A stretch of DNA of 50,451 nucleotides from a virus (lineage: Duplodnaviria > Caudoviricetes). Position 1 is the stretch's first letter; the number at the start of each line of letters is the position of its first letter. The translations under genes and the position numbers were made by a program. The notes beneath the pieces are model-generated. The model was not told the origin of the DNA, ran no database searches, and worked only from the letters and a program-made list of their open reading frames with translations. The stretch spans positions 1 through 50,451 of the IMG/VR virus record IMGVR_UViG_3300015203_000012. The stretch is one strand, 5' to 3'. This document shows positions 1,918 to 46,422 of the stretch, piece after piece.

Positions 1918-1937
1918 CGTAGGGCATGGAACCGGGC
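1915..1937 (+). repeat. 23-bp site A (TGACGTAGGGCATGGAACCGGGC), consensus copy
   Basis: Identical to 43995-44017 and 44194-44216; its TGA is the SLOG stop. Confidence 0.9.
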
Positions 1938-7213: not shown

Positions 7214-7944
7214 TCACCGACATCCTGTACCTGACGTTCAACCGTCTCGAGTTCACCCGCTTCACGTTGCAGATGATGATCCGCAACACCGACTGGCATC
7301 TCGTCAGACAAGTCGTGATCTACGACGACTCCAGCGAAGACGGCACCCGCGAATACCTCGACCAGGCGGTCGCCGACATCCCCGTCGACGTGTCGCTCCG
7401 CTGCGAAAAGCTCCGGTCCCCCGTCGCCGTGATGAACCGGTATATGCGCGACACAGACGCGCACCGGTTCGTGAAGATCGACTCCGACATCGCCGTCCCA
7501 CCACGCTGGCTCACCAACCTCTCCGATGTCATGGACGGCAACCAGGAACTCGACCTCCTCGGCATGGAAGGCGGCCGGATGGGCCTGCCACGCTATGACC
7601 CCGTGAAGTACGGGTACACGCTGTGCACCCATATCGGCGGGGTCGGGCTGATGCGCACCCACCCGTTCCGCGAATACGGGCCGATCCCCGAACAAGGCCG
7701 CTTCGGGTTCGGCGACTGGCAGCAGGAACACGGCCTCGTCCGCGGCTGGATCACCCCCGACCTTCTCGTCTGCGAGCTCGACAAGGTGCCTATCGACCCG
7801 TGGGTGTCGCTCTCCCAGCGGTACATCGCCGAGGGTTGGCAGCGGCAGTGGGGTCACTACGACAACCGGTTCCCGTACTGGTACGAATGGTTCGACCCGG
7901 CCGTCGTTGCCGAATGCACTGCCGACGAAGGGGCTGCCGAGTGA
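7210..7944 (+). CDS. glycosyltransferase family 2; probable CTG start
   Basis: LTFNRLEFT, YDDSSEDGT, KIDSD; GAGGAG upstream, CTGA overlap. Confidence 0.8.
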   Translation: MITDILYLTFNRLEFTRFTLQMMIRNTDWHLVRQVVIYDDSSEDGTREYLDQAVADIPVDVSLRCEKLRSPVAVMNRYMRDTDAHRFVKIDSDIAVPPRWLTNLSDVMDGNQELDLLGMEGGRMGLPRYDPVKYGYTLCTHIGGVGLMRTHPFREYGPIPEQGRFGFGDWQQEHGLVRGWITPDLLVCELDKVPIDPWVSLSQRYIAEGWQRQWGHYDNRFPYWYEWFDPAVVAECTADEGAAE

Positions 7945-8696
7945 AGCTCGCGGCCTCCCTGATCGTCCGCAACGAGCTCTCGAGGTTTCTCGAGCCGTGC
8001 ATCGAGTCGCTCCTCGAGTTCGTCGACGAGATACGCGTGCTGGACGACCACTCCGATGACGGGAGTTGGGAGTGGCTGCTGAACCGTGCCGGTGTGCAAC
8101 CGTTGAAGGTCGGCGGATCAGCAGCCTTTTTCGCACATGAGGGGCGGGCCCGGCAGACGCTGCTGGAGTGGACATTGGAGGGCGACCCGACGCATGTGCT
8201 CGCCGTCGACGCCGACGAGCTCGTGTCGGACGGGGCAGCCGTCAGACGTGTCTGTGAGGAATCGCCTGCGGACGTGTTCTCGCTCGACATGCTCGAGGTG
8301 TGGAACGCCCAGTCGGACTGTCTGTGTGTGCGCGGCGATGGTGGCTGGCGGCCGCATCCGGTGCACGCGTTGTGGCGTGTGCCGGCCGACCGGTCAAGGT
8401 TGCATGTCGCCGATCGTGCTTTGGCGTGTGGCCGTGTCCCGCAGATCGTCGATCAGGCGAAGGCCCTGCCGACGGGTGCCAGGATCCTGCATTTCGGATG
8501 GGCGAACGAGACGGAACGCGTCGCACGTCATCACCGCTACACGGTCGCGGACGGCGGCCGGTTCCACCAATCGCAGCATCTCGACTCGATCCTCTGGCCC
8601 GACGAGCGTGTCGGCCTACACCCGTTCGGCTGGCCGTCCGCGATCGTCCCGCACCGACACCTCATCCTTGAACGCTGCAACCCGAAAGGAACCTGA
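7941..8696 (+). CDS. glycosyltransferase family 2
   Basis: IVRNE, LDDHSDDGS, VDADE, ILHFG. Confidence 0.85.
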   Translation: MKLAASLIVRNELSRFLEPCIESLLEFVDEIRVLDDHSDDGSWEWLLNRAGVQPLKVGGSAAFFAHEGRARQTLLEWTLEGDPTHVLAVDADELVSDGAAVRRVCEESPADVFSLDMLEVWNAQSDCLCVRGDGGWRPHPVHALWRVPADRSRLHVADRALACGRVPQIVDQAKALPTGARILHFGWANETERVARHHRYTVADGGRFHQSQHLDSILWPDERVGLHPFGWPSAIVPHRHLILERCNPKGT

Positions 8697-11426: not shown

Positions 11427-13567
11427 ACGCCGACCGGTTCAACCAGCACATCGCCGCGGGACGCCAAGCAGCGGAAGGCAACCTTGCGGCGCTCGAGCGC
11501 GGCTACCGCATCACATTGCAGTCGGCCGCCCGGCATGCAGCCGACAGGTTCGCCGCCCTCGCAACGGACCATCTGACCGCCGACGTCACCGATCCGAAAT
11601 GGACGCCACCGGAGAACGACCAGCTGATCGACCCGGCCCGCATGGCGGCCGACGCGCAGAAACGCACCCAGCCGGCACGCCATGCAGCGTTGAAGGCCGT
11701 CGTCGCACCAGCGCTCGCGGACATCGGGATCTCGTACACCGTCACAAACCCTCTCGTTGCGGGGCTGATCGACACGCTGGGTGTGCGCGCGCAAGACATG
11801 GGCGACGCGATCCGCAACGATGTCGCGGCCGCGGTCCTCGACGGATACCAGACGGGCATGTCCGTCGCCGACACCGCCAAGCAGATCCAGCAGGCCATCG
11901 AGGATGTCGCACCCGCACGGGCGGCGATGCTCGCACGCACCGACCTCGTCGCTGTCGCGAACGGCGCATCCGTCGCCGCCGTCCGGCTCATCAACAACAA
12001 CGCCGACGGCGGCCCGCAGATCGGATACAAGCAATGGCAGGCCACCGCCGACGAACGGACCCGCGAAACACACGCGGAAGCTGACGGGCAGACCGTGCCG
12101 ATCGACCAGCCGTTCCAGGTCGGCGGCGAACAGGCCGACTACCCCGGCGACCCCGGGTTGAGCGACGAAGAAGCCTGCAACTGCAGATGTTCAATAACGT
12201 ACATGGAGGCCGCCGGGGCACTCACCGCTATCGCGGCCGACGGTGGTCCGGACGTGTCAAACCTCGCGATGGTCGCCGTCTACCCGCGCGCCCACGAAGC
12301 GACATCGCTCGCTGTCGACGGTGGACTCGACCCCGGTGACCTCCACTGCACGCTGTTGTTCCTCGGCGACGCCGAGAGCATTGATCTGCAAGCGCTCACC
12401 GATGCCGTTGCCGCGACGGCGCGTTCTCTGCCGCCGATCGACGGTGAGGTCGGAGGGGCTGCTCACTTCGCGGAAGGCCCCGACGGATACCCGTCGATTG
12501 TGCTGCCTGACGTCCAAGGCCTTTCGACGCTTCAGGAGACGGTGCGGGCCAACCTCTCGGATGCCGGGATCGTCTCCCCATCCGAGCACGGCTTCACGCC
12601 GCACATGACTCTCAGATACACCGAGGGGCCGCAGGTACCCGACCCTGCGAACCTCGGATCGCCGCTTCACTTCGATGCTCTATCGATCGTTGTGGCGAAG
12701 AATCGAACCGACTATCCGCTGACAGGAACGCTCGCGGCGTCTATGCAATCTCCGACCGGGGATGTACCCTCGGCGGGACACATGGACGAGTCACCCTCTG
12801 TCACCTTCGTCACGGACGCGCTCGAGGAGCGGATCGCCGAACTGCTGACCGCCGCGGTCACGGTCACCGTCGACGATGAGGCCTCCGAGGCGGCCGCGGA
12901 GCTCGCCCCCACCCCTACACGGTGGCGCGCGATCCTGTGCATCGAAGGCCAGGAAACCCAGGACAATCCGACGCTCGCCAGGGTCATCCGTGAAGGAACG
13001 ACGACGTGGCGTGAGCTTCCGTTGCCGCTCGGCGTGATGTACCAGACACCTCACAGCGACGACGTCGAGGCCGAAGTGTGCGGGCTGATCGACACGATCT
13101 ACCGTGACCAGGCCGACTTCCGGATCATCTGGGGCGAGGGGTTGTTCAACATGGATGAGGTCGGCGTCCGTGCGGCGGCCAGGGTCGGCGATCTGAGCCT
13201 GCGCGGCGTTTCGATCGACCCGTATGTGCCGGAGATCGAGATCACCGAGGTCTCGCCAGACACGCCGGAGGCGCCCGGGAAGACGCTGGTCACGATGATC
13301 AACGCGGTCATCTGCGCGGCCACGATCTGCCCCGTCCAGGCGCTCGACGGTGCGCAGATCAGCCTGCTCGCGTCCGCCGACGGAACCGAGGTGATGCCCC
13401 TCCGGTCGGACACATGCTTCGTCCTGACACGCGAGATCATCCGTGACGGTGTCGCGTCGGCAGGCGTCGATAGTGCACAGCTCGAGGCGAAGATCGACCA
13501 TCTCGCCGGCCTGCTCGAAGAAGACCGCGGCCGGCGCCGTGCGGTCATGTCGGCGATGGCGCTATGA
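11423..13567 (+). CDS. MuF-like minor head protein fused to a 2H phosphoesterase and a prohead-protease-like domain
   Basis: MuF KQW...D.RTRETH...YPGDP...CNCRC; 2H motifs HCTL and HMTL; C-terminal LPLPL...GVSID. Confidence 0.8.
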   Translation: MNADRFNQHIAAGRQAAEGNLAALERGYRITLQSAARHAADRFAALATDHLTADVTDPKWTPPENDQLIDPARMAADAQKRTQPARHAALKAVVAPALADIGISYTVTNPLVAGLIDTLGVRAQDMGDAIRNDVAAAVLDGYQTGMSVADTAKQIQQAIEDVAPARAAMLARTDLVAVANGASVAAVRLINNNADGGPQIGYKQWQATADERTRETHAEADGQTVPIDQPFQVGGEQADYPGDPGLSDEEACNCRCSITYMEAAGALTAIAADGGPDVSNLAMVAVYPRAHEATSLAVDGGLDPGDLHCTLLFLGDAESIDLQALTDAVAATARSLPPIDGEVGGAAHFAEGPDGYPSIVLPDVQGLSTLQETVRANLSDAGIVSPSEHGFTPHMTLRYTEGPQVPDPANLGSPLHFDALSIVVAKNRTDYPLTGTLAASMQSPTGDVPSAGHMDESPSVTFVTDALEERIAELLTAAVTVTVDDEASEAAAELAPTPTRWRAILCIEGQETQDNPTLARVIREGTTTWRELPLPLGVMYQTPHSDDVEAEVCGLIDTIYRDQADFRIIWGEGLFNMDEVGVRAAARVGDLSLRGVSIDPYVPEIEITEVSPDTPEAPGKTLVTMINAVICAATICPVQALDGAQISLLASADGTEVMPLRSDTCFVLTREIIRDGVASAGVDSAQLEAKIDHLAGLLEEDRGRRRAVMSAMAL

Positions 13568-14142
13568 CGGTCGAGCGGCGCTTCGAAACAGGGGCGCGTG
13601 GCACCCCTTCGACCGACCCCGGCCTGGTGCTCGGAGACGATGGTATCGCCTATGTTGTCGCGCCTGACGGCTCCAGGACGGCGGTCGGAAGTGGCGGTTC
13701 CAGTGCCTCCGTAGGGAGCGAACAGGTCTACGGCAACCCGACCGGATCAGTGGCGGCAGGGGATCTAGCGTCGCTGACGTTCGACTCGTTCGGGCAAGGT
13801 GACGACCTCCTCGACTTCACGGTTCCTACTCTGCCGGTCGTCAAGGTGGCAGGCCTCTATACCGTCACGATCAACGCTTTCCCTGGCGAGGATATGTCGA
13901 GCGACGCACAATTTTATATGACGTTGACGCTCGACGCCGCAGGACAAGTGGCTTACGCTGTCAACAACAGTGCTTCGGCATATCCGGGCAGTCTGCGGCC
14001 TGAAAACTCCACGACCGTCTCCTATTTCATTCCTCTTGGTGGCGCGATCCTCGCGACTGTCAGGAACGCGGACAGCATCGCGCACACCTTCGCGATCGAC
14101 GTTGCGGTGATTAGCTGCGTCGTTGCTTCCCGGATGACGTAG
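13564..14142 (+). CDS. beta-rich (C1q/TNF-like) virion or accessory protein
   Basis: VKVAGLYTVT pattern; atypical codon usage; ends in site A. Confidence 0.5.
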   Translation: MTVERRFETGARGTPSTDPGLVLGDDGIAYVVAPDGSRTAVGSGGSSASVGSEQVYGNPTGSVAAGDLASLTFDSFGQGDDLLDFTVPTLPVVKVAGLYTVTINAFPGEDMSSDAQFYMTLTLDAAGQVAYAVNNSASAYPGSLRPENSTTVSYFIPLGGAILATVRNADSIAHTFAIDVAVISCVVASRMT

Positions 14143-14157
14143 GGCATGTAATCGAGA
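14135..14157 (+). repeat. site A variant (TGACGTAGGGCATGTAATCGAGA)
   Basis: First 14 nt match consensus; contains the TAG stop of 13564..14142. Confidence 0.8.
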
Positions 14158-14186
14158 CAACGGTGCGTCCGTCGGGACATTGCGGC

Positions 14187-14215
14187 TTGTCACCGACCGC
14201 CCCCGCGCCTACCAT
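14187..14215 (+). promoter_or_regulatory. sigma-A promoter, leaderless to GTG 14223
   Basis: TTGTCA-N17-TACCAT, 7 nt before GTG. Confidence 0.6.
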
Positions 14216-14222
14216 CCGTGCC

Positions 14223-14912
14223 GTGGATGTCCTGACCGCCGCCGCCGCAGGGTTCGCCCCGATATACCCGCCAGCCGGCTGGTTCGACAACCCGGCCCTT
14301 GACGGGCCAACAGCGCTCACGGTCACCCGTGACGGACGTGTCTACGGGCACGCCGCACTGTGGGACAGCTGCCATGTCGGATTTCCCGGCCGGTGCGTCG
14401 CGCCGCCGCGCTCCCGGACCGGGTACAGCCACTTTCATCTCGGCGAGATCTCCACCCAGGAAGGCCACGAGGTCTACGTCGGCAAGATCACCCTGGCGTC
14501 AGGGCACGCCTCGACAGCGGCGGGGATGACCGAGGAGGCCGCCCGCGCCCACTACGACGACACCGGCACCGTCGCCGCATACGTCAGGGCAGGCGACGAC
14601 CAGCACGGCATCTGGCTCGCCGGCGCCGTCCGCTCAGACCTGCCGGCCGAACGGCTGCAAGACCTCCGCGCAAACCCCGTGTCGGGGGATTGGCGTGGCG
14701 GCGAGCTCATCGCCGCCCACTGCGTACCGACACCCGGGTTCCCGGTGCCACGTGTCGCGTCGAGGCTCGCCGCGTCGGCTGCAGAGACGCCACTAGCGCT
14801 TGTCGCATCGAGCGGTCTGCGACCGACCGTCGACGAGGCAGACACGCTGGCGTTGATCGCGGCGCTCTCCGCCCCCGAACGGCGTGTCGCACGGCCCGGG
14901 TTCGGCCGCTGA
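14223..14912 (+). CDS. head-maturation protease-associated domain protein
   Basis: GRVYGH.A.W..CH.G, HYDDTG, GIWLAG, SGDWR, PGFP; typical of actinophage head modules. Confidence 0.65.
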   Translation: MDVLTAAAAGFAPIYPPAGWFDNPALDGPTALTVTRDGRVYGHAALWDSCHVGFPGRCVAPPRSRTGYSHFHLGEISTQEGHEVYVGKITLASGHASTAAGMTEEAARAHYDDTGTVAAYVRAGDDQHGIWLAGAVRSDLPAERLQDLRANPVSGDWRGGELIAAHCVPTPGFPVPRVASRLAASAAETPLALVASSGLRPTVDEADTLALIAALSAPERRVARPGFGR

Positions 14913-15568
14913 CCCGGATCGTCTGCCGGATCCAAACGCATCCGGCGCGCGCCGCCCTGATCCCGCCGCTCCTCGAACGCCTCCACGGCTTCGACGACCT
15001 CGCTGCCATCGCCGACCCCGAACCTGGCGCATCCGTCGCGAACGCATGGCGGAGCTACCGCGCCTGCCTCGAAGCGATCCCGCCCGGCGCGCATGGCCTG
15101 ATCGTCCAGGACGACTCGATCCCGTGCCGCAACCTCGCCGCCGCGCTCGACCGGATCGTCGCGGCCCATCCCGACAGGATCATCTGCCTGTTCGTCGGCG
15201 GCGCACCGAAACGATCCGCCGACAACGTCACAGCCGCCGGCGGCCGCGGCGACCCGTACGCCGAACTCCACACAGGCGACTGGCTGCCATGCGTCGCCAC
15301 CGTCTACCCGCCCGCACATGTCGCCGGCATCCTCGAGTTCGTCGACCGGCGCGACTGGCCGCACAACAATCTCGGCGACGACCACCGGCTGGGCGAATAC
15401 ATCCGTGCAGCCGGCATCACGGCGCTCGCAACGGTCCCGAACCTTGTCCAACACCCCGACGAGGTGCGTTCCCTGATCGGCACACATGCACTCGCCGGAC
15501 TCAACCCGGCACGGGTCTCGTGCTGCTACATCGGCAACCACGACCCGCTGCAGATCGACTGGAGCTGA
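14909..15568 (+). CDS. glycosyltransferase-like protein; probable CTG start
   Basis: IVQDD, GDDHRL, VPNLVQH...SLIG; CTGA overlap. Confidence 0.7.
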   Translation: MTRIVCRIQTHPARAALIPPLLERLHGFDDLAAIADPEPGASVANAWRSYRACLEAIPPGAHGLIVQDDSIPCRNLAAALDRIVAAHPDRIICLFVGGAPKRSADNVTAAGGRGDPYAELHTGDWLPCVATVYPPAHVAGILEFVDRRDWPHNNLGDDHRLGEYIRAAGITALATVPNLVQHPDEVRSLIGTHALAGLNPARVSCCYIGNHDPLQIDWS

Positions 15569-15571
15569 CTG

Positions 15572-15928
15572 CTAGATCGTCGCGCCGTGCAGCTTGCGAT
15601 GACAGTTAGAGCAGAGCACGATGCACTTGGCGATCTCGGCTCGCAGTTTGGTCTCGCCACAGTCTCGTGCTTGCCCACGTCCGAAGCCAAAGCTCTTAGT
15701 TGTCGGATCGACGTGGTGAAAGTCAAGACAGCGAAGGTCACGCTCGTCGCAGCGTGAACACCCTTCTGCCTGGGCCTCGGCGATGATTCGACGGTTTCGT
15801 TCAACCGTTCGTTTCTTCACGACTCGGCGAATCGCTCGAGCCTTCTCAATGTTCTCAGGCCGGAGCCGCCACTCCTTCTGATACTTGCGATGATAGGCGA
15901 GGAACGCCTCTCTGTCCTTGATCGGCAC
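15572..15928 (-). CDS. free-standing HNH endonuclease, antisense to late genes
   Basis: CSRC...LDFHH...KCIVLCSNCHRKLH. Confidence 0.85.
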   Translation of the reverse strand: MPIKDREAFLAYHRKYQKEWRLRPENIEKARAIRRVVKKRTVERNRRIIAEAQAEGCSRCDERDLRCLDFHHVDPTTKSFGFGRGQARDCGETKLRAEIAKCIVLCSNCHRKLHGATI

Positions 15929-24499: not shown

Positions 24500-25365
24500 A
24501 TCTGCAGTGGGGAAATATTCCGCTGACGTTGCTGTCGCCGTTCGCGAACATCACGTTCAACGACGACACCAACCCCGTCGGGCTGTTCCTGCTCGACGAC
24601 TCGAAATGCTCGATCAGTGTCGCGCTCAGGGTGACGAAGGACGACATCCCGCAGGGGTCGGGGGCGATCTTTCACCGGCCGAGGTTGCAGTCGGAGACGC
24701 TGATGACGTTGGGCGTCGAGTTCTACAAGGACAGGCACACGCCAGCGTGCGACCACCAGCTCGTCCAGATGTCGGATCTGCTCTTGGGTGCGCTCAACTC
24801 GCTTCTTGACGCGGACCAGGGCCGTGTCGAGTGGACGCCGTCGGGGTTCGGCACAAGGCTTTTGGATGATGCGTTGTGGGCGGTTGCGGCGGTGCCGTTC
24901 ATCGAGGGCACGTCGATTCGCGGGTACACGTTCGGTCTGGACTCGCCGTTCCCGTATGCGATCGATTTGGCGCAAACGGTCGTGACTGTCGCGGCGGGTG
25001 CGACCGTCACGCTGACGAACGCCGGGTCGGCACCGTTCCTGCCGGTCGTGAAAGTCTCCCCGGCGTCGTCGGTCCCTTTGACGGCGTTCACCCTGACGAA
25101 CCACACGGTGCTGGACGTTGACGGCAACCCGCTGATGGTCGTCTACGACTCGACCCGGCCGGGAGCGCAGACGATCGCGCCAGGCCATTACGCGGAGATC
25201 GACTTCTTCCGCAACACCATCTACCTCGACGGAGCATCGACGAACCTCAAACCGGGCCTCGACGTCTCAACACTCGATTTCTTCCCGATCAACCCCGGCG
25301 CGAACAGTGTCACGGTGACGGGCGGCAACGCCGACTTCCTTCTCAACAACGCCTGGGCCGGGTAA
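24496..25365 (+). CDS. distal tail protein (Dit-like)
   Basis: Follows TMP; P.PY, N.G....P, FF.I.PG.N. Confidence 0.75.
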   Translation: MNLQWGNIPLTLLSPFANITFNDDTNPVGLFLLDDSKCSISVALRVTKDDIPQGSGAIFHRPRLQSETLMTLGVEFYKDRHTPACDHQLVQMSDLLLGALNSLLDADQGRVEWTPSGFGTRLLDDALWAVAAVPFIEGTSIRGYTFGLDSPFPYAIDLAQTVVTVAAGATVTLTNAGSAPFLPVVKVSPASSVPLTAFTLTNHTVLDVDGNPLMVVYDSTRPGAQTIAPGHYAEIDFFRNTIYLDGASTNLKPGLDVSTLDFFPINPGANSVTVTGGNADFLLNNAWAG

Positions 25366-34649: not shown

Positions 34650-35125
34650 TGTCTGAGATCGCAACCCGGTCCCCGGGGTTTTTGTCTGACCGTGGGGCCT
34701 TCGATCGCTTCTGCGAATCGGTGGATGTTGCTGACGACGGCTGCTGGCTCTGGACAGGGCGCACGTTCCCTGATTCCGGTCGCGGAGTCTTCCCGATCCA
34801 GCGGACAAACGGTAAGTGGCAGCGTGCACAGGCGCATCGGGCCGCCTACGAGCTGCTCGTCGGCCCGATCCTCGATCGGCTCGTACTCGACCATCTCTGC
34901 AACAACAAGATCTGCGTCGCGCCCGAACACCTCGATCCCGTAACTCAAGCGGTGAACCGCGAAAGACAAACAACGCGGCAGACCCGTTGCTATCGCGGCC
35001 ACCCTTTGAGTGGCGACAACCTCTACACCTACGTGCGGCCTAGCGGCACTGTGACGCGGCACTGCCGCGAATGCCGGCGGCTTGCTGACCGTCGCTGCGA
35101 CGCGCGCAAAAGGGAGCGCTCATGA
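34649..35125 (+). CDS. HNH endonuclease
   Basis: CWLWTG, AHRAAYE, LDHLC.N..CV.P.HL..VT...N, C..GH. Confidence 0.9.
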   Translation: MSEIATRSPGFLSDRGAFDRFCESVDVADDGCWLWTGRTFPDSGRGVFPIQRTNGKWQRAQAHRAAYELLVGPILDRLVLDHLCNNKICVAPEHLDPVTQAVNRERQTTRQTRCYRGHPLSGDNLYTYVRPSGTVTRHCRECRRLADRRCDARKRERS

Positions 35126-36069
35126 CTGAAATGGTCAAGCGGTCACCAATGCAGGAGTTGGTGTCTCAAGTGCGCAGCGAGCAGTTCTTGGAGCAGGTGA
35201 GGGCGGCTCTCCCCGGCAATGTCTCGCCCGAGCGCTTTGTTCGGGTAGCGGTAACGGCGATTAATCAAAACCCAGATCTCGTTGCAGTCGATAAGTCGAC
35301 GCTCTTTTCCTCGATCATTAGATGTGCGCAGGACGGCCTTTTGCCGGATGGCAGGGAGGCGGCGTTGGTTGTCTTCAATGACAAAAAGGCAGCGGGCGGA
35401 AAGCGGTCGAGTTACCTCCCAATGGTGTCTGGATACCGCAAGATCGCGGCGAAGCATGGGCTGTCGTTGGAGGCGTTCATCGTCAACGAGAACGACGTGT
35501 TCGAGTATGAGCTCGGCTACGAGCCGGTGCTGATCCACAAGCCGGCGAGACTCGGCAGCGACCGGGGCGATGTCCTTGGCGCGTACGCAGTCGCACGGCA
35601 CACCGACGGACGCAAGTGGCTCGACGTGATGTCACGGGATGAGATCGAGAGGGTGCGGTCGGTGTCACGGGCGGCCACGTCGGAGTACGGGCCGTGGGTG
35701 AACCACTGGGGTGAGATGGCCCGCAAAACCGTTGCCCGCAGGTTGTTCAAGCAGCTGCCGTTGGACGACCTCGACATCGCCGACGTCCAGGTGATCGAAG
35801 CCGGTGACGCCGACGCCGACCTTGCTGCGCTGCCGAAACCGACGATGACGGAGGCCGAGGCGAACGTCGCCGCATCACTGGGCTCGGCAACGCCGCCACA
35901 CACCGAGGGCCCCGACGACCGCGCACCTCAACCCGAGCCTGAAGGCGTCGAGGAGGCTGACTGGTCGGAGGCCTACCCAGCCGGCGAAGACGAGCCGGAG
36001 CCCGACGCCGACGAGTCGTTCTCTGACCGGATCCCGAAGGGCGCGCGGGGCGCGGGAGGCCACGCATGA
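35122..36069 (+). CDS. recT: RecT-family single-strand annealing protein
   Basis: ERFVRVA, AQDGLLPDG, V.END.F, GPW..HW.EMARKTV.RRL.K.LP. Confidence 0.9.
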   Translation: MTEMVKRSPMQELVSQVRSEQFLEQVRAALPGNVSPERFVRVAVTAINQNPDLVAVDKSTLFSSIIRCAQDGLLPDGREAALVVFNDKKAAGGKRSSYLPMVSGYRKIAAKHGLSLEAFIVNENDVFEYELGYEPVLIHKPARLGSDRGDVLGAYAVARHTDGRKWLDVMSRDEIERVRSVSRAATSEYGPWVNHWGEMARKTVARRLFKQLPLDDLDIADVQVIEAGDADADLAALPKPTMTEAEANVAASLGSATPPHTEGPDDRAPQPEPEGVEEADWSEAYPAGEDEPEPDADESFSDRIPKGARGAGGHA

Positions 36070-37082
36070 CCGCGACCGCCACCCCGCCGCTGCGCTGGTC
36101 GTCCGTGCGTGACTGCGCGCGCAAAGCCGTCTACGAAGCAACCGGTGTCGAGGGACGCGACCGGACGCTGGCCGAGCAGCGGCAGCTGTACCGTGGCCGG
36201 TCCGTCGGCCACGACTGGGTCGTCGCGGTCGCGACAGAGAAGATGTGGAAGGTCTGGGTCGACTCCGGCCCGACCAACTGGCTTCCCGCCGAGCTGACCG
36301 CGGCCACGGAGGACGAAGCCGACGCAATCGCGGAGCTACGCGTGCAGTGGGAGATGGGTGTCGGCCACGCCGACCTGTACATCCGCGAGACCGACACCGT
36401 CGTCGAGGTGCTCTCGTCGCAGAGCCCGACCGGCGACACCATCCATTCCAAGCTGATCCAGGCAAGGGGTTACGCCCGCGCGGTCGACGCGTCGAACGTC
36501 GCTCTGATCATTGTCGACCCGGCGACGCTTGCGGAGGAGCGCGTGATCGTAACCGCCGGCTCGCCGCAGTGGGATGACCTCGCGCGCGAGTGCGATGACC
36601 GTGTCGCGAAGGTTGTCGCGTGGCGTGACAGCGGCGAGATCCCGGCGCGGGTGTGCTCGAAGCCAGGTGAGGCGTGGGGCCACTTCTGTGTGTTCGCCTC
36701 CCACTGCTTCGACGGCTACGAGCCGCCGCTGGTCGCCTCCGTCGAGTCGGAGGAAGCCCAGATGCTCGCGATCAGGTTGGCGAACGTGAAGAAGCAACGA
36801 CGCGAGATCTCGCAAACCGATCGCCGACTCGAGGAGGAGCAGAAGGAGATCCAGGCCGAGCTCGAGCCTCTGGTGCCGGGCGGGGAATGGCAGGTCGGAG
36901 GTTGGCGCGTGAAGCGCTCCGACCGCACCCGGAAGTCGTTCAAGCTCACGCTCGCGGAGAGGGACTCGCGGCTGCCCGACGAGCTGCTTGCCGAGTTCAC
37001 ATCGATATCTGAGTTCACGGTGTGGGATGTCGAGCAGACCGGACCCGCACTCGTGTTCGACGATGAAGTGGCACCGTTCTGA
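36066..37082 (+). CDS. PD-(D/E)XK Cas4/RecB-like exonuclease
   Basis: C.RK, GHAD, VE, Q..GY, C-terminal Cys cluster; adjacent to recT. Confidence 0.7.
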   Translation: MTATATPPLRWSSVRDCARKAVYEATGVEGRDRTLAEQRQLYRGRSVGHDWVVAVATEKMWKVWVDSGPTNWLPAELTAATEDEADAIAELRVQWEMGVGHADLYIRETDTVVEVLSSQSPTGDTIHSKLIQARGYARAVDASNVALIIVDPATLAEERVIVTAGSPQWDDLARECDDRVAKVVAWRDSGEIPARVCSKPGEAWGHFCVFASHCFDGYEPPLVASVESEEAQMLAIRLANVKKQRREISQTDRRLEEEQKEIQAELEPLVPGGEWQVGGWRVKRSDRTRKSFKLTLAERDSRLPDELLAEFTSISEFTVWDVEQTGPALVFDDEVAPF

Positions 37083-37249: not shown

Positions 37250-37271
37250 CGAAGGAACCGTGCTCGCTGTT
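37246..37271 (+). repeat. module-start motif B, copy 2
   Basis: ATGACGAAGGAACCGTGCTCGCTGTT; last 15 nt identical to copy 1. Confidence 0.6.
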
Positions 37272-37452
37272 ACATGTCCGCTCTTGTGAGTCGTGTGGCC
37301 GTGCGCCGATCGGTTCCTACCGTGCGAATCCGACCAGGGCCTACCTCTGCCCCTATTGCAACGAGAGGGCCGTCTTGCGGGACGAGGGTGTGGTCGTGGA
37401 CAGCTTCACGAACGTCTGCCACGAAACCTGCCTAGCGAAGGCGACTGCGTGA
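37246..37452 (+). CDS. small Zn-finger protein starting with motif B
   Basis: CESC, CPYC, CH..C. Confidence 0.6.
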   Translation: MTKEPCSLLHVRSCESCGRAPIGSYRANPTRAYLCPYCNERAVLRDEGVVVDSFTNVCHETCLAKATA

Positions 37453-37658: not shown

Positions 37659-38128
37659 CCAGTCTCGAACTCGTCAACATCGACCTGACCGACGCTAAGC
37701 GGTTCGTGCGCGAGCATCACCGCCACAACCCCAAGATGACCGGCTGGAAGGTCGGCGTTGGCCTAGCCAATGGGGAACTGCGCGGCGTGGCCGTCCTGTC
37801 GCGGCCAATCTCGAAAGAGGTTCAGAAGCAGGAACCACGCACCGCTGAGATCATCCGTACCTGCACGCTTGGCGACAAGAACGCCAACAGCCGTCTCTAT
37901 GGCGCGATGGCCCGCGCAGCTGCTGCCCTGGGCTACACGGCCGTCATCACGTACACCCGTCCCGACGAAAGCGGTGCGAGCCTCAAGGCCGCCGGTTTCG
38001 TTCGGGACGAAGGCGAGTTCGGTTCTCGCGAGGGCCAGATTTGGCACAGCAGGCAGCAATCGCTGATCGACGACGACCGCGACAACTCAGGTCCGAAGTA
38101 CCGATGGAGGCGCGTTCTCCGTGGCTGA
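37655..38128 (+). CDS. XF1762/Mom-like GNAT-fold protein
   Basis: FV..HHRH, GVA...RP, E..R.C, NA.S.LYGA, ITYT...E.G.SLKAAG. Confidence 0.75.
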   Translation: MTSLELVNIDLTDAKRFVREHHRHNPKMTGWKVGVGLANGELRGVAVLSRPISKEVQKQEPRTAEIIRTCTLGDKNANSRLYGAMARAAAALGYTAVITYTRPDESGASLKAAGFVRDEGEFGSREGQIWHSRQQSLIDDDRDNSGPKYRWRRVLRG

Positions 38129-38321
38129 CGTAGGGCATGTAACCGGGCAGCACCATCGCGCGTTGCTGTCGATCATCCCGATCACGGATGACGAGGTTGA
38201 ACGGCTCTGGGCGACCATCGACAAGCCTCTCGACAAGATTCACGAAGCCGAGGTTTGGTACGAAGTCACGTCGCTCCGCGAGTCGATTCGTCGCCTGCTA
38301 ACCGAACGGGAGCAGCGATGA
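38121..38321 (+). CDS. small cassette-like ORF between two A sites
   Basis: Starts MADVGHVTG. Confidence 0.6.
   Translation: MADVGHVTGQHHRALLSIIPITDDEVERLWATIDKPLDKIHEAEVWYEVTSLRESIRRLLTEREQR
38126..38148 (+). repeat. site A (22/23)
   Basis: TGACGTAGGGCATGTAACCGGGC. Confidence 0.9.
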
Positions 38322-39499
38322 ACGTGGGGCATAGAACCGGGCAGGAAACGCCGCCGAGCGAGGAAGCGCTCCTGCCGGTTCTGCTCGAGCGCGTCACGGA
38401 CGTGTCGTCGTTCGCGAAGGCGAAAGACATCTCTCTCCCGCGCGCCGCGGCCACCTACATCATGTTCAAACGCAAGCGCCTCACGGCGGCGTCGGAGCGC
38501 GGCTACCAGACGATCCTGAACGAGTTCTCGAAGCACCACCCCGGCGCCACGCTCGGCGACTTCGAGCCGCCGCGCGGCAACATCCTCATCGAGGACTTCC
38601 TGACCGCACGGTGGGGCGACAGCGCACCTCGCACGTACAACAAAGCCCATTCGGTGCTCTGCGACTTCTTCTCGTGGCATGTCGCCCGCGACACCATGCA
38701 GCGGGACCCGATGGCGACGATCGAACGGGCGAAGGCCAGACCTCCGCGCCGCATCACGTTCTCGAAGGCTCAGGTCGCCGCGATCTTCGCCGCCAACCAT
38801 GAGCCGCACGACCAGATCGCCCTGCGGCTGCTCCTCCACTACGCGATCCGCAAAGGCGCGTTGCGCGGAGTCCAGTTCGACCACTTCGACCACGAGAAGC
38901 GCACCCTCACCGTATTCACCAAGGGCGAGCAGTTCCACACGTTGCCGATCGTCGAAGACCGCATCTGGGAGCTCATCGACGACCTTGGCGAGCCGGGCCA
39001 CCACTACCTGCTCCCGAGACGGCTTCTCCGGAAGCGAATCTCGCCGAGCCGGGCCGAGTTTGCTGCGGCTTCAGACCACCTCGGCGATTTCCTCTTCGCG
39101 CTGACCGAGATCGAGGACACCGCGTGCGCGGCCGAACTCGCGACGCTCCTGGCGCATGCCGAGCGGACTCTGCCGTTGTTGAGCCTGATGGTCGAGGCGG
39201 CGGCGATCCGCGAGCATGTATTTCCGGCCGAGCCGATGGGCGAGCACGGCGCTCACCTCTGGTGGTACCGCTGCCTGTGGCGCGCCGGCGTCGTCGAGCC
39301 CGGCACCACGAGCGGCCGCAAATTGCATTCGGCCAGGCACACCGCGATCCAGGCGGTTCTCGACACGACAGGAAACCTTCGCGCCGCCCAGGCCGTCGCC
39401 GGCCACAAAAACGTCGGCACGACCGGAGACAACTACACCGACTGGACCGAGGGGCAGACCGAGAAGACGCTCCGCGACACGATCGGGGCGTCGTCGTGA
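38318..39499 (+). CDS. tyrosine recombinase 1
   Basis: Catalytic set AIRK, TKG, HSARH, GH, NY; ~60-aa insertion in catalytic domain. Confidence 0.85.
   Translation: MNVGHRTGQETPPSEEALLPVLLERVTDVSSFAKAKDISLPRAAATYIMFKRKRLTAASERGYQTILNEFSKHHPGATLGDFEPPRGNILIEDFLTARWGDSAPRTYNKAHSVLCDFFSWHVARDTMQRDPMATIERAKARPPRRITFSKAQVAAIFAANHEPHDQIALRLLLHYAIRKGALRGVQFDHFDHEKRTLTVFTKGEQFHTLPIVEDRIWELIDDLGEPGHHYLLPRRLLRKRISPSRAEFAAASDHLGDFLFALTEIEDTACAAELATLLAHAERTLPLLSLMVEAAAIREHVFPAEPMGEHGAHLWWYRCLWRAGVVEPGTTSGRKLHSARHTAIQAVLDTTGNLRAAQAVAGHKNVGTTGDNYTDWTEGQTEKTLRDTIGASS
38320..38342 (+). repeat. site A variant (19/23) at start of recombinase 1
   Basis: GAACGTGGGGCATAGAACCGGGC. Confidence 0.8.
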
Positions 39500-39546: not shown

Positions 39547-40617
39547 ATGGCGCGCAAAGCGCAGCTGTCACTCGACCACGCGACCGACCTGTGGCTTGGC
39601 GAGCTCGCCCGCCAAGGCCGCGCCGAAACAACCCGGCGGAAGTACCGCGAGACGCTCGACCCGTTCTGCGCCACCTACGAGCACCTGATGCCCCGAGAGA
39701 TCACCGCCGACCACTGCCGGTCGTTCCTCAACCGGTGGTCGAACCATTCGAAATCGACTCTCGCTCTCCACGTGACCGTGTTGCGGGGCTTCTTCCGGTT
39801 CCTCTACAACGAGGAAGTGATCGACCGCAACCCGGCCGAGAAGCTGCAGCGGCCGCGGAGGCTCAGGCCCGAGGACGTCGACGTCGTCTCGGTCTCGAGC
39901 AACGACGTCCGCCGGATGTTCGACGCGGTCGCGACCTGGCAGGAATTGATCTGCCTTTCGGTCCTGCTCTACCTCGGCGTTCGCCGCCGCGCTGCGTCTT
40001 CAGCCCGCCGGCGGGATCTCGACTTCGAGCAAGGGACGATCCGGTTTCGTGAGAAGGGCGGCAAGGCGATCGTGAAGCCGATGCCCGACGAGCTCGCCGC
40101 GATCCTCCGTGCCGCCGACGAGCACGGCGTGTGGTCGACCCCGGACGACTACCTGATCCCCAACCGGAAGCCGTGGCTCGTGCGCGCAGGCGCCGAGCGG
40201 GGCCACAAGGTGATCTACGAAACGGTGATCAAGGTCGCCCAGCGCGCCGGCGTTCGCTCGCACGTGCACGCGCTCCGGGCGGCGTTCGCGGTGCAGTTCG
40301 ACGAGGCGCACCCCGACCAGGTGGTCGCACTCAAGGAACTGCTCGGCCACTCCCGCATCGAGACGACCATGACGTACCTGCGCCGCAAGGACAAAGCCCG
40401 TGCGATGGAGACGGTACGTGACCTCTCGTGGGGCTCATCCGTGTTTCCGGCGAACACCGCAGTACCCCCAACGGGATTCGAACCCGTGTTGGGAGCCGAC
40501 GCTGACGGCAACAGGGATTCGCCGGCAGCAGAGACTGTAGACGTTCCGGCGGCGCTTCAGGCGAAGCTGCGTGAGCTCTCGCTCGCGGCGAAACACAGGG
40601 GGCGCGTCGAGCAGTGA
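39547..40617 (+). CDS. int: tyrosine recombinase 2 (integrase, contains attP)
   Basis: GGAGG RBS; GVRR, EKGG, HALR, LLGH, TTMTY. Confidence 0.9.
   Translation: MARKAQLSLDHATDLWLGELARQGRAETTRRKYRETLDPFCATYEHLMPREITADHCRSFLNRWSNHSKSTLALHVTVLRGFFRFLYNEEVIDRNPAEKLQRPRRLRPEDVDVVSVSSNDVRRMFDAVATWQELICLSVLLYLGVRRRAASSARRRDLDFEQGTIRFREKGGKAIVKPMPDELAAILRAADEHGVWSTPDDYLIPNRKPWLVRAGAERGHKVIYETVIKVAQRAGVRSHVHALRAAFAVQFDEAHPDQVVALKELLGHSRIETTMTYLRRKDKARAMETVRDLSWGSSVFPANTAVPPTGFEPVLGADADGNRDSPAAETVDVPAALQAKLRELSLAAKHRGRVEQ
40462..40490 (-). other. attP core = 3' half of a tRNA (likely Glu)
   Basis: Minus strand AACACGGGTTCGAATCCCGTTGGGGGTAC: T-arm plus acceptor strand. Confidence 0.8.
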
Positions 40618-40842: not shown

Positions 40843-41367
40843 ATCCGCCTGCTACTCGCCACGGCCCTCGCGGCCCTCGTCGTCGTCCCCTCATCGCTCG
40901 CTGCGAGCGCGCACGTGTTGAAGCAGCGCGAGCACCGGCAGGTCAGATCGTTGCACCGGTACGTCGGCACGCTCCGGTTCTTCCGCCACCACGAGCGGCA
41001 GGCCCGGTCGCGGATCGGCCGTCGCGAGGTGCGCCGGGCGCGCAGGTGGATCGTCGTGATCCGCCGCGAGATCGCCGAGACGCGGGGGCAGCTTCGTCCG
41101 CGTCGGCCGCTCTTCGATCGTGGTTGGCTCGCCGAGGCGACGTGCATCCATGAGCACGAGGGCGCCTGGAACGCGAACACCGGCAACGGTTACTTCGGCG
41201 GCATGCAGTTCCTGCCGTCGACCTACAGGTCGGTCGGCGGCCGTGCCGATGGTCGCGCTGATCTCGACTCGCCACAGGAGCAGCTCAGGAGGGCTCACAT
41301 GGTTTGGGCGCGCGACGGCGGTTCGTTTCGGGAATGGGGAACCGCTGGGATGTGCGGGCTCGCGTGA
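40843..41367 (+). CDS. secreted Rpf-like lytic transglycosylase; probable ATC start
   Basis: CI..HEG.W.ANTGNGYFGGMQF..ST...G...AD..SP.EQ; signal peptide upstream of GTG 40915. Confidence 0.85.
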   Translation: MRLLLATALAALVVVPSSLAASAHVLKQREHRQVRSLHRYVGTLRFFRHHERQARSRIGRREVRRARRWIVVIRREIAETRGQLRPRRPLFDRGWLAEATCIHEHEGAWNANTGNGYFGGMQFLPSTYRSVGGRADGRADLDSPQEQLRRAHMVWARDGGSFREWGTAGMCGLA

Positions 41368-43585: not shown

Positions 43586-43607
43586 CGGACGCAACACGGT
43601 CGCTGTT
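43582..43607 (+). repeat. module-start motif B, copy 3
   Basis: GTGACGGACGCAACACGGTCGCTGTT. Confidence 0.5.
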
Positions 43608-43785
43608 CTCGGCCCGCCGTGTGGTGGAGCATCTGGACGAGATCCGGGCGACTTTGTCCGATCTCAAGCTTGCCGCTAACGACGAATCAGTGCGCTCGAT
43701 CGTCCAAGAGGCACAGGATGCCGTCGCACTCGCGGCCGACCAGATTGAGGCGATGCTCGCTCGATTTGCGAGTGAGGCGCTGTGA
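43582..43785 (+). CDS. small helical protein starting with motif B
   Basis: AAGGAGG RBS. Confidence 0.65.
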   Translation: MTDATRSLFSARRVVEHLDEIRATLSDLKLAANDESVRSIVQEAQDAVALAADQIEAMLARFASEAL

Positions 43786-43997
43786 AACTCCCAGAGGTTC
43801 ACATCTGGCGCAGCAAGTACGGCCGTGTCGAACGCGTCGAGTTCCGCGACGGCCCTGAGCGAATGGAGATGCGGGTCTGGCGCATCGTAAGTTCGTACGA
43901 CGCGAATGACGGGGTTCCGCGCGTTGAGTTCGCGGTGATCGCAAAGCCCATCTACCACGACATCGAGGACGAGGACGATGGCGATGGCGATGACTGA
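43782..43997 (+). CDS. small hypothetical protein; stop supplied by site A
   Basis: Coupled overlaps. Confidence 0.6.
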   Translation: MKLPEVHIWRSKYGRVERVEFRDGPERMEMRVWRIVSSYDANDGVPRVEFAVIAKPIYHDIEDEDDGDGDD

Positions 43998-44196
43998 CGT
44001 AGGGCATGGAACCGGGCTGGGTGCTGAGGTCGTGGCGAAGCTTCGCGAGGCGGACGACGCTACATCCGTCGTTCACGACTACCTGTGCGGTCTGAACGAG
44101 GTCTCACCGTCGGACTGCGAAGCCGCAATCTGGCAGATCCACAACACGCTCAGGCCGCTGATCGACCCGAGTGGCGAGGAGTGGATTCGTGTCTGA
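43990..44196 (+). CDS. cassette-like ORF (MTDVGHGTG...)
   Basis: Bounded by two perfect A sites. Confidence 0.65.
   Translation: MTDVGHGTGLGAEVVAKLREADDATSVVHDYLCGLNEVSPSDCEAAIWQIHNTLRPLIDPSGEEWIRV
43995..44017 (+). repeat. site A, consensus copy
   Basis: 23/23. Confidence 0.9.
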
Positions 44197-44401
44197 CGTA
44201 GGGCATGGAACCGGGCCGCGCATCGCGCTCTGGCAGGACGTGTTCCAGAAGCCGCACTGGGTTCTCCAGGTTGGCCGTCTGCTCGTTCACTACTACGGCA
44301 AGCCTCGCCTCAAGCCGTTCTACTTTCGACGGCTCAGCAAGGGCGACACGCTGAATCTGCCGGACGACGAGCCTGAGTTTCGGATGGTGTTCGGTGTCTG
44401 A
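44189..44401 (+). CDS. cassette-like ORF (MSDVGHGTG...)
   Basis: GAGGAG RBS; bounded by A sites. Confidence 0.6.
   Translation: MSDVGHGTGPRIALWQDVFQKPHWVLQVGRLLVHYYGKPRLKPFYFRRLSKGDTLNLPDDEPEFRMVFGV
44194..44216 (+). repeat. site A, consensus copy
   Basis: 23/23. Confidence 0.9.
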
Positions 44402-44594
44402 TCGCGGAACGGAAACCGGGCCTTCAGACGGTCTGTTCTTCCTCCAGAGGCTCACGGAGAAGAAGGGCAAGCACTACCTCATCTGGCACGAATACATGAC
44501 TGCCGAGGCTCGCGAGCGGTGGGCCGCGAAGTACCGCGAGCGCGGCGACAAAGTGACCTTCGTCGGAGACGGCACGGGAGGCATCTATGTCTGA
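44394..44594 (+). CDS. cassette-like ORF (MSDRGTETG...)
   Basis: Bounded by A-site variants. Confidence 0.6.
   Translation: MSDRGTETGPSDGLFFLQRLTEKKGKHYLIWHEYMTAEARERWAAKYRERGDKVTFVGDGTGGIYV
44399..44421 (+). repeat. site A variant (14/23)
   Basis: TGATCGCGGAACGGAAACCGGGC; same junction geometry. Confidence 0.65.
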
Positions 44595-44802
44595 TCGAGG
44601 GCATGGAACCGGGCACCCCAAATCTTCGTCGGAAGCGGTAACTGGCACAGCCAGTCCCGCGCAGGGAAACCGGAGCGCGGTGAGATCAGCCGCTTCCGAC
44701 GAAGGAACTAGAACCGGGCAAGGATCAGGCTCGCTGTTCCAGGGCGCTGAAACGCCTGGAAATCCGCAGATTGTGACACGGAAGGAGGATGCATGGGCCT
44801 GA
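44587..44802 (+). CDS. ORF made largely of stacked repeat remnants
   Basis: SDRGHGTG...SEAVTG...SDEGTRTG...GSLF. Confidence 0.35.
   Translation: MSDRGHGTGHPKSSSEAVTGTASPAQGNRSAVRSAASDEGTRTGQGSGSLFQGAETPGNPQIVTRKEDAWA
44592..44614 (+). repeat. site A variant (20/23)
   Basis: TGATCGAGGGCATGGAACCGGGC. Confidence 0.85.
44697..44719 (+). repeat. site A variant (17/23)
   Basis: CGACGAAGGAACTAGAACCGGGC. Confidence 0.7.
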
Positions 44803-45167: not shown

Positions 45168-45412
45168 GCACGCGCTGCGTTGCCTATATGCGGCCGTTCC
45201 CGAACCCGACCGAGATTCGCTGCGGCCTTGAGCAAGGCCACCCCGACGAGTTGCACAAAGGCGAAGTACGCGACTACGCCTACCCCGGCTCCAAGACGGT
45301 GATGACCTGGGCTGACAGCGACCGCCGCACCTACCACGGAGAGTGGCCCGGGCCGTGTGACTCTGCGAGATGCATCTTGCCGCTCGGTCACCACGGGAGT
45401 CACGCGACGTGA
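45164..45412 (+). CDS. small Cys/His protein
   Basis: C.L..GH twice. Confidence 0.6.
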   Translation: MSTRCVAYMRPFPNPTEIRCGLEQGHPDELHKGEVRDYAYPGSKTVMTWADSDRRTYHGEWPGPCDSARCILPLGHHGSHAT

Positions 45413-45669
45413 TCGACTTTGTGCAGCCCGGTGGCGGGCATGGAGCCGGGCCTAGCCGTTGCACTGATCCGTGCTGGACGCCGCTTGATTGTCCTGATTG
45501 CGGTCGCCGGATGAACCCTCGTGGCCGCAGCGCCCCGTTGGAGATCGTGTGCCTCCGTGAGCCGTGTCCGGCCGACGACCCGAACGTGAATCCACGGCAT
45601 CTGTGGAGCGCGACCGACGATGAGCGGTGGCGGTTTTACCCGGACGAGAGGCCCGTCGATGAAGACTGA
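45409..45669 (+). CDS. small Cys-rich protein; stop supplied by site A
   Basis: CPDCG...PRGRSAP. Confidence 0.6.
   Translation: MIDFVQPGGGHGAGPSRCTDPCWTPLDCPDCGRRMNPRGRSAPLEIVCLREPCPADDPNVNPRHLWSATDDERWRFYPDERPVDED
45429..45451 (+). repeat. site A variant with degenerate left arm (17/23)
   Basis: CGGTGGCGGGCATGGAGCCGGGC. Confidence 0.55.
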
Positions 45670-45689
45670 CGTAGGAACGGTAACCGGGC
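45667..45689 (+). repeat. site A variant with alternative spacer (18/23)
   Basis: TGACGTAG-GAACGG-TAACCGGGC. Confidence 0.85.
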
Positions 45690-45711
45690 CCTCTGGGCGG
45701 TCGTTGGTCTA

Positions 45712-46422
45712 GTGCCTCGTTCTCACGGGGTGATCAAGGTGTCGGTGTGGGAGGTCGGGTCGGACTTCCGGGGGCTCTCGCTCGACTCGCAGTGGGCGTA
45801 CGAGATGCTCGTCTCGCAGCCGCAGATCAACAACCTCGGCCTGCTGCCGTACACCCCGGAGAAGTGGTGGAGGTTCGCCGCCGACCTCACAGCTGTCCGG
45901 TTGCACCAGGCGCTCACGCAGCTCGAGCAGGCCGCGATGACCGTCACCGACAGCGAGACCGGCGAGCTCCTCGTCCGCACGTTCATCAAGCACGACCGGA
46001 TCTGGAAACAGCCGAAGCTCGTCACGAACGCCCGGAAACTCATCCGGGAAGTCGAGTCCCATCCGATCCGAAGCTACCTCCTCGACCGCCACCCATGGCT
46101 CATCGAGGAGTCCTGGTCGCACGACAAAATCGAACGGCACGAGACCACCAGACGCCGGCCCAGAACCACCACGACGGAACCCCTATCCACACACGAACCC
46201 ACAGCCAACGGGAAACCCCTAACCGAAGGGGAACACGAAGGAGTAACCGAAGCCCTAACAGAGGGGGTATCTCCCCCGCGGGCGCGCGTACGCGATGGCC
46301 TACCCCTACCCCAAGCCCCTACCCCAACTACGGGTTCAAGCGTTAGCGAGACAAGGGCTGTTGCGGCACCCCTCGGAACAGCCCTTACTCAAATCACCCC
46401 AGAACTGCGGAACATCCAGTGA
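45712..46422 (+). CDS. putative replication initiator
   Basis: I..S.W...DF..LS...QW.Y..L.SQP.IN..G.L, E.LVRTFIKHD; low-complexity C-terminal region with repeats. Confidence 0.65.
   Translation: MPRSHGVIKVSVWEVGSDFRGLSLDSQWAYEMLVSQPQINNLGLLPYTPEKWWRFAADLTAVRLHQALTQLEQAAMTVTDSETGELLVRTFIKHDRIWKQPKLVTNARKLIREVESHPIRSYLLDRHPWLIEESWSHDKIERHETTRRRPRTTTTEPLSTHEPTANGKPLTEGEHEGVTEALTEGVSPPRARVRDGLPLPQAPTPTTGSSVSETRAVAAPLGTALTQITPELRNIQ
46177..46330 (+). repeat. iteron-like repeats, candidate origin
   Basis: TAACCGAAG x2, TAACAGAGG, CCCCTACCCCAA x2. Confidence 0.45.

Follow-up and report, generated by a model that had tools for sequence, protein, structure and literature searches.

A 23-nt repeat at the gene joints of a soil phage as a likely recombination site for the tyrosine recombinase Int1

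The origin of the precise joints seen at the borders of tiny phage genes is an old question, and such joints are usually ascribed to illegitimate or homologous recombination. The locus described here raises that question again, as one short repeat, site A, sits at the stop/start joints of small accessory genes and also supplies the start of a recombinase gene. What, then, is this repeat for? The window (the whole stretch of DNA that was analysed, 50,451 nt) is a 50.4-kb soil phage contig of 66% G+C that carries genes for a portal, MuF, a protease, a major head protein, a terminase, repressors, RecT, two tyrosine recombinases and a replication initiation protein. Relatives of one of the two recombinases, Int1, are found in genomes almost only of Solirubrobacterales, Gaiellales and other Actinomycetota, which makes it likely that the phage's host is a member of Thermoleophilia. 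Some further features of the window can be recorded here in their own right. About ten sugar-modifying genes, including a PIG-L deacetylase, a formyltransferase, three glycosyltransferases and an FkbM methyltransferase, lie between the terminase region and the portal (2577–8696) in a block common to the related phage G003. A 2H phosphoesterase (2'-5' RNA ligase family) domain is fused to the MuF minor capsid protein (11423–13567), and an early-region gene with an Rpf-like transglycosylase domain (40915–41367) is conserved in G003. The protease gene (14884–15609) seems to run on in another frame near 14884–14912, a frame break that is spanned by the G003 DNA alignment.

Mismatch and matrix scans of the window found site A, a 23-nt repeat, in 11 copies, all on the plus strand and four of them exact. 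In the numbering used here, positions 2–17 form the arm and positions 18–23 the core, CCGGGC. The copy at 14135 is listed further below; the others, each beginning with the T of its TGA, are the following class A sites:

1915–1937, plus strand: class A site, exact consensus, in the mini-ORF 1904–1984 ahead of an HNH gene
38126–38148, plus strand: class A site, from the scans
38320–38342, plus strand: class A site that forms the first codons of Int1 (MNVGHRTG)
43995–44017, plus strand: class A site, exact consensus, from the scans
44194–44216, plus strand: class A site, exact consensus, identical to contig L006 at 29 of 29 nt from the GTG on
44399–44421, plus strand: class A site with a variant arm, from the matrix scans
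44592–44614, plus strand: class A site, from the scans
44697–44719, plus strand: class A site with a variant arm, at the 3' foot of a long hairpin and followed by a class B site
45429–45451, plus strand: weak class A site, in the ORF 45409–45669 from codon 8 on and in the same frame
45667–45689, plus strand: class A site within the mini-ORF 45659–45712, which overlaps the GTG of the replication initiation gene

The copies at 38320 (the start of Int1), 44697 and 45429 are absent from the list in the initial annotation, most of whose account of the remaining joints is borne out. It had described the first TGA as the stop of the upstream gene in seven copies, and ORFs indeed end there in 7 of the 11 (at 1917, 38128, 43997, 44196, 44401, 44594 and 45669). 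The start codons that it placed 5 nt before the TGA are found at 38121 (MADVGHVTG), 43990 (MTDVGHGTG), 44189 (MSDVGHGTG), 44394 (MSDRGTETG) and 44587 (MSDRGHGTG), and the mini-ORFs said to couple onward at the array ends, 1904–1984 (TTG start, 26 aa) and 45659–45712, both overlap the next start. In the case of the 14135 copy, the frame stands and the coupling falls: the site is in frame with the downstream ORF, but the upstream gene ends at a TAG (14140–14142), the interval from the preceding in-frame stop to the site contains no start codon, and the next gene comes with a sigma-70-like promoter of its own (14187–14215). On its sequence, this copy is best read as a different class of site and not as a coupling site.

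The consensus of site A contains stops in two frames (TGA at positions 1–3 and TAG at 6–8) and leaves a single open frame; genes that arrive in two of the frames therefore stop, while one frame stays open. In the 14135 copy and in L006, the upstream gene stops at the TAG of positions 6–8. Among the 55 overlapping or abutting junctions in a hand-made list of 76 genes of the window, an 8-nt overlap occurs five times, always at site A, and 4-nt overlaps account for 40. The units of the array are tandem and co-oriented, spaced at 199, 205, 193 and 194 bp, with one ORF per unit. The cassette genes and the hairpin that accompanies them are as follows:

38121–38321, plus strand: cassette gene with one relative (75%), whose head has diverged
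43990–44196, plus strand: cassette gene with a body from a family of 38 proteins whose heads vary
44189–44401, plus strand: cassette gene for which the search found only the gene itself
44394–44594, plus strand: cassette gene with no match in Pfam, PHROG or Atlas
44624–44705, plus strand: long multibranched hairpin between two class A sites, with no Rfam match

The ORF at 44587 is doubtful, since the codon model does not pick it and it crosses a strong hairpin (z −4.5). That hairpin, with z −4.5 over 44580–44760 and a second hairpin after it, makes up a non-coding 105-bp unit of the array, which is perhaps a small RNA or a terminator-like part; Rfam gave no match anywhere in the window.

A DNA-level constraint had been claimed for the repeat, and the comparison of synonymous changes agrees with it: 3 of 17 distinct variant codons are synonymous, and 14 of the 17 alter the residue. 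Codons for the same residue are identical in 53 of 59 cases against 19.6 expected from codon usage, an identity that shared descent also yields. The third base of codon 5 is A in all 11 copies while the residue there varies (G, V, R or E), and rare codons such as GTA (3% of Val) are retained. A peptide that is conserved with free codon variation is not what site A presents, nor do homologous sites turn up in random frames; in L006, L007 and L004 the starts lie at six offsets, all in one frame, as the proposed frame lock would have it. The head encoded by the site is missing from most Int1 relatives and from all 38 proteins of the family to which the 43990 gene body belongs, and in the structure model of Int1 it is disordered, with pLDDT under 50 across most of residues 1–30. 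The relatives of the 43990 gene (P0122–P0159) are mosaics of short heads and tails common to otherwise different proteins, a pattern that suggests frequent recombination within small genes.

Outside the window, the exact 23-mer recurs in two metagenome contigs, L006 (1.0 kb) and L007 (4.3 kb), which bear no Int1 and are both too short to show it. L006 is identical to 44189–44217 at 29 of 29 nt and an integrase follows, whereas L007 has three tandem copies and then tRNA-Met sequence. Three looser copies lie in contig L004, directly upstream of the Int1 homolog that it encodes. On the minus strand of L006, the site-led frame (666–440) is 75 codons long and extends over the start of the integrase; it encloses, in a different frame, a second ORF whose RBS is very strong. 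Among the class A searches, that of metagenomes gave three matches, two real (L006 and L007) and one by chance, and exact and degenerate searches of viral contigs gave no match, two chance-looking matches, and three matches of which one was real (L092, which is L004). Two matches in genome contigs were rejected as chance, one of them being the antisense of a ferredoxin start, and 120 single matches there included none with a second core and none at a stop/start joint. Cultured phages gave 12 weak 17-nt matches, and the 23-mer is no commoner than expected by chance in 401 genomes of the likely host class (4 matches vs 2 control matches). A CCGGGC-class array is missing from G003, the closest of the relatives that have Int1; the only sites there are one of class C and two in gene heads, whose cores read CACCTC and CACCGC. 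When coupled gene starts in the site A frame were tested blind for att-like arms, nothing was enriched beyond the known copies, and weak head-like arms in L181 and L183 were discounted, these being complete genomes without an Int1 match. The heads of P0161 and P0003 look drifted in register and not swapped at a sharp edge. In the contigs of one read run that contain the window stretch, no joint was seen at any site, which counts neither way because contigs drop rare variants.

The enzymes that could act on such a site are the following:

38318–39499, plus strand: Int1, a tyrosine recombinase and the candidate enzyme, with no arm-binding domain seen and a helical insertion of about 50 residues
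39511–40617, plus strand: Int2, a second tyrosine recombinase, unrelated to Int1 (22% over 152 aa)
40462–40490, minus strand: tRNA-Glu-like 3' end inside the 3' end of Int2, which reads PPTGFEPV
35122–36069, plus strand: RecT family recombinase, the rival enzyme, followed by an exonuclease-like gene (36066–37082)

The gene of Int1 starts within the site A copy at 38320. At the sequence level, its R-K-H-R-H-Y set is intact: R178, K202, H337 and R340 are invariant, and H363 and Y373 are found in at least 90% of 42 sequences. The model of Int1 folds as a tyrosine recombinase in which the roughly 50 extra residues form two helices in the catalytic domain. In a quick tree, the proteins that have this long insertion (24 of 70 rows) group together with a support of 100 and stand apart from the tmRNA/tRNA integrases. 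Of 45 long-insertion members, 11 have a site-like N-terminus, vs 0 of 51 short relatives, as scored with a pattern written after reading the N-termini and with 23 of 120 proteins unclassed. In the window, L003 and L004, Int1 has no adjoining tRNA-type block and a separate integrase follows; Int1 is therefore spare for integration. Int2 is likely the phage integrase, and the tRNA-Glu-like segment at 40462–40490 is likely its attP; integration there would alter the C-terminus of Int2. In L003, an ORF at about 6330–6857 resembles, by eye only, a Spo0H-type sigma factor and is absent from the window.

The link between Int1 and site A comes from the integrases to which Int1 is distantly related, as the site A matrix repeatedly matched tRNA-like 3' ends behind their genes. 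A tRNA-type 3' block lies at most 600 nt after the gene in 69 of 86 such loci, and these blocks comprise 55 in an intact RNA gene (38 tmRNA, 9 tRNA-Arg, 5 tRNA-Glu and 3 other) and 14 fragments. A tRNA-Ser identity of the block was rejected, ARAGORN calling it tmRNA. At the fragment, or junction-type, sites, identity to tmRNA/tRNA stops at site A position 23, and positions 24–39 are an inverted copy of positions 2–17. The junction-type dyad averages 8.8 of 16 matches at a core of 6 bp vs 3.6–6.0 at other core lengths between 2 and 11, in the 13 rows left after L153 was dropped as not tRNA-like, three of which resemble cut genes without a dyad. Read from the sequence, the junction-type sites behind Int1 relatives are att sites with 16-bp inverted arms around a 6-bp core. 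The intact tmRNA/tRNA targets are one-armed, with 5.2 of 16 dyad matches. These relatives form part of a large family of simple tyrosine integrases in Thermoleophilia (L104–L180) whose targets are tmRNA, tRNA-Arg, tRNA-Glu and tRNA-Cys, and their crossover is apparently 5' of the T-loop, not across it.

A matrix made from att arms only ranks the copies at 38126, 14135, 44194, 43995 and 1915 first to fifth of about 100,000 window positions, although these five represent two distinct arms, and it places three more copies in the top 15; it is not specific alone, since unrelated positions rank 6th and 7th. Ordinary tRNA 3' ends match the site A consensus at 9–15 of 23 positions. In a register-corrected test that used 11 junction sites, hand-picked as dyad-type, none of 400 column-shuffled matrices, each taken at the best of 90 registers, reached the score of the eight distinct class A arms, and 1 of 400 did so when only phage-side arms, which owe nothing to tRNA, were used. 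When 15 class A copies are compared in pairs, identity is 1.00 over positions 18–23 and drops to 0.30 at position 24, in a profile that left out the 14135 and L004 copies and for a class that is partly defined by its core. The copies of site A are related, so that counts over them are not independent. CG stands at positions 36–37 in 7 of the 11 window copies, mirroring GACG at 2–5, and CGT is there in 7 of 11 att sites. Together, the match of the arm, the conservation that ends with the core and the one-armed intact targets argue that site A is built as a one-armed target with a new core, that is, as one arm plus core. It probably belongs to the att type of the Int1 family.

Two further classes of site bear on this assignment:

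14135–14173, plus strand: class C site with two inverted arms and the core TCGAGA, with counterparts in G002, G003, L237 and L245
1522–1544, minus strand: class B site with an A-like arm and the core CAGCGA, in a gene head, with a weaker link to the att arms than A and C
37264–37286, minus strand: class B site in a gene head
43600–43622, minus strand: class B site in a gene head
44731–44753, minus strand: class B site behind the 44697 copy

Class C is present in all three Int1-clade phages examined (the window, G002 and G003), and it is the top two-armed match in both the window and G002. The counterpart at G002:9181 has 34 of 44 nt aligned in a phage that shares only Int1 with the window at the DNA level and, like the 14135 site, it lies at the end of a structural-region gene ending RMT-stop. 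The counterpart at G003:34448 is in the same place, before the protease, with about 4 kb of cargo ahead vs 0.6 kb in the window. A search with the class C pattern gave 12 matches, namely G002, L237 and L245 (the latter two intergenic and in a dyad-like context) and nine that are likely chance (dyad 2–6 of 16, mostly in coding frames). The right arm, which was no part of the search pattern, is the same in L245. The fragments bearing L237 and L245 (47% and 6% complete) gave no Int1 match, and G002, G003, L237 and L245 share the same dataset number. The register-corrected test gave 0 and 12 of 400 for class C, with the mirror arm as second-best register, and the site is not translated into a gene. 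Inverted arms around a 6–8-bp core, the form of a tyrosine recombinase core site, are found in class C (14135, G002 and L245) and in the att sites of the relatives; in class A, one arm is good and the other weak.

Class B is a second gene-head repeat, read S-L-F. Scored only at arm positions that had no part in its definition, its seven copies rank 1, 6, 7 and 14 of 366, 1 of 27, and 1 and 2 of 102. Against the att arms, class B did not pass the register-corrected test (33 and 46 of 400 shuffles), and its membership in the Int1-type sites is less sure. An inverted A-like match at 13692–13714 (and at G002:6921) lies in GGSS-type coding sequence and is likely chance. B-then-A pairs were considered as attC-like or transposon-like inverted ends and rejected, complementarity within the pairs being inconsistent. 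Three spaced repeats at G002 25097–25190 also have an arm-like score (GGCAGAAAATGCCGG type) and are probably replication iterons.

How else can the repeat be explained? Site A could be a boundary sequence, a short head that genes have in common and that lets the phage's RecT system exchange them by homologous recombination, with Int1 not acting and the likeness to att sites due to ancestry or chance. RecT and an exonuclease-like gene are present in the window, 23–29 identical nt are common to copies on unrelated contigs, selection for open frames would give the frame lock, and a boundary-sequence model has been described for phages (PMC3233612, in part). However, it does not account for a conserved stretch that coincides exactly with arm plus core, for the mirror CGT, for a class C with two arms or for the confinement of site-like heads to the Int1 clade, and we consider it unlikely. 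A second alternative accepts the sites as Int1-type and takes class A as scars, decayed relics or Int1 repressor-binding sites, so that only class C works, for example in resolving genome dimers. It draws on the 14135 site, which alone scores well on both arms, on class C being the class common to all three Int1-clade phages, on the drift of heads in relatives and on the lack of joints in contigs (which drop rare variants). Yet the intact tmRNA/tRNA targets of the family are one-armed as well, and all 15 class A copies have an identical core despite varying arms, which binding alone would not need; we think this reading quite unlikely. A further possibility is that the next gene is driven by an ECF sigma promoter of the GGAAC-N17-CGTT type, with site A as its −35 half. 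In the window, 6 of 11 copies have CG[AT] 17 nt after AAC (one offset of 29, p 2e-5), this spacing is that of the Corynebacterium SigH/SigE consensus (PMC10012870, in part), and at 45667 the next start lies 6 nt past the CGTT. The same bases are, however, the mirror arm of the att dyad; the spacing recurs in just 1 of 9 copies outside the window, the 23-mer stays at chance level in the host-class genomes, and a promoter needs neither 13 conserved upstream bases nor a fixed frame at six offsets, all of which makes the promoter very unlikely. Readings as sigma-54, sigma-H (Spo0H), boxA/boxB or T-loop hairpin were dropped after by-eye comparison with consensus motifs. Finally, an N-terminal peptide tag or a sense-strand RNA re-initiation signal, either of which would suit the constant frame and, for the RNA, the start-codon hairpin that folds in three copies, is largely refuted and highly improbable given the residue-changing codons, the disordered and mostly missing head, the A-like arms on the minus strand (class B) and the untranslated class C.

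Site A is thus likely a recombination site for Int1, which would swap gene cassettes there. Int1 would bind the arm, recruit a partner to the poor arm and exchange strands in the core, as proposed for Rci at the sfx sites of R64 (PMC11852207, in part). A crossover in CCGGGC between two class A sites would join a left part (the upstream stop, RBS, start and about seven codons) to a right part that can be any gene body, and the joined product would read on in the sole open frame of site A. The exchanged unit would begin at one core, take in a gene body and end with the RBS, start, stop and arm that come next, each new neighbour being fused in frame to a head of about seven codons. As the class A sites are direct repeats, 100–200-bp units would be excised or re-inserted within one genome and exchanged between genomes. 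The second arm would be poorly conserved because it is the coding sequence of the incoming gene. The mini-ORFs at the array ends would hand translation on to fixed genes, and the class-specific cores (CCGGGC in A, CAGCGA in B and TCGAGA in C) would prevent recombination between classes. The initial annotation had held that each cassette donates RBS and start so that coupling is preserved; this fits the one-arm-plus-core anatomy, but an RBS inside the upstream gene is usual throughout this phage and not peculiar to site A.

Several known systems can be compared with this arrangement. The sfx sites of shufflons lie in frame in coding sequence. Those of R64, on which Rci acts, are asymmetric, with a conserved core and one arm and with a variable other arm, and site A has the same asymmetric form; sfx sites and site A alike lie in coding sequence, where recombination fuses a constant part to alternative parts (PMC11852207, in part). 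Unlike site A, sfx sites flank invertible segments and Rci only inverts, whereas the same-core sites of the phage are direct repeats over 44 kb; no same-core inverted sites were found, all 10 CCGGGC sites being on the plus strand and the minus-strand sites having the core CAGCGA. The donated part in the phage is a gene head, and Int1 has an internal insertion where Rci has an extra C-terminal domain.

Integrons, which are known in phages too (PMC9892861, in part), are rows of single-gene units that all point one way and each end in a repeat, next to a tyrosine recombinase whose catalytic domain carries an insertion (PMC8618304, PMC8138268 and PMC9892861, each in part). Tandem, co-oriented, repeat-ended units are found in the array of the window, and three in L007. 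Int1, however, has no match to TIGR02249 (IntI) at E 0.001, and Int2 scores 58.6 bits vs a cut-off of 265. The best Foldseek match of Int1 is an IntI structure, with a TM of 0.30 that is no better than for other tyrosine recombinases. In a search for an attC-like bottom-strand hairpin, 19 copies folded as DNA (−2.7 to −16.4 kcal/mol) gave no common structure. Site A also differs from integron sites in overlapping the start and first codons of the next gene, and the relatives of Int1 are tmRNA/tRNA integrases. The site A system works like an integron array of sfx-like sites and, by the defining tests, is a member of neither integrons nor shufflons.

The simple integrases of Thermoleophilia that target tmRNA (ssrA) or tRNA are 35–47% identical to Int1, and their sites have the arm sequence of site A and its layout of arm and core. 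Each has a single att site, directly behind the gene, in contrast to the Int1 clade, which has a 50-residue insertion, a neighbouring second integrase and many new-core sites but lacks an adjacent tRNA-type site. We infer that the Int1 lineage derives from, or is sister to, these integrases and now acts on sites within phage genomes. Oriented short repeats at phage gene junctions are also known from the L5 stoperators. In other phages, the SAS/ESAS repeats and the motifs of Microbacterium clusters EC, EF and EG are likewise short oriented repeats at junctions of small non-structural genes, and in cluster EC one of them adjoins the MuF-protease junction (PMC7302621, in part). They are intergenic, upstream of start codons and not tied to a recombinase, whereas site A lies in the first codons. 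Helper-embedded satellites offer another case of an integrase clade adopting sites inside phage genomes (bioRxiv 10.1101/2022.07.18.500453, in part). The satellite integrase excises its own element from a late gene, whereas Int1 lies in the early operon, and between the sites that flank it are found the phage's other integrase and the likely attP. No description of an arrangement like that of site A was found in the open-access literature searched.

Taken further, and tentatively, a phage lineage may have turned a tmRNA-targeting integrase into its own gene-cassette engine. Such an engine would be independently evolved and integron-like, with double-stranded one-armed sites, with classes kept from crossing by their cores, and with the start of every captured gene, the recombinase included, built from the site. 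A named enzyme and a named site make the shuffling of phage gene rows directly testable. A recombinase that needs one arm and a 6-bp core, and for which several natural cores exist, would be a useful tool. The system suggests a third route to gene cassettes beside integrons and shufflons, one in which expression is built into the joint, and it hints at a role for the 'extra' integrases that are common in phage annotations.
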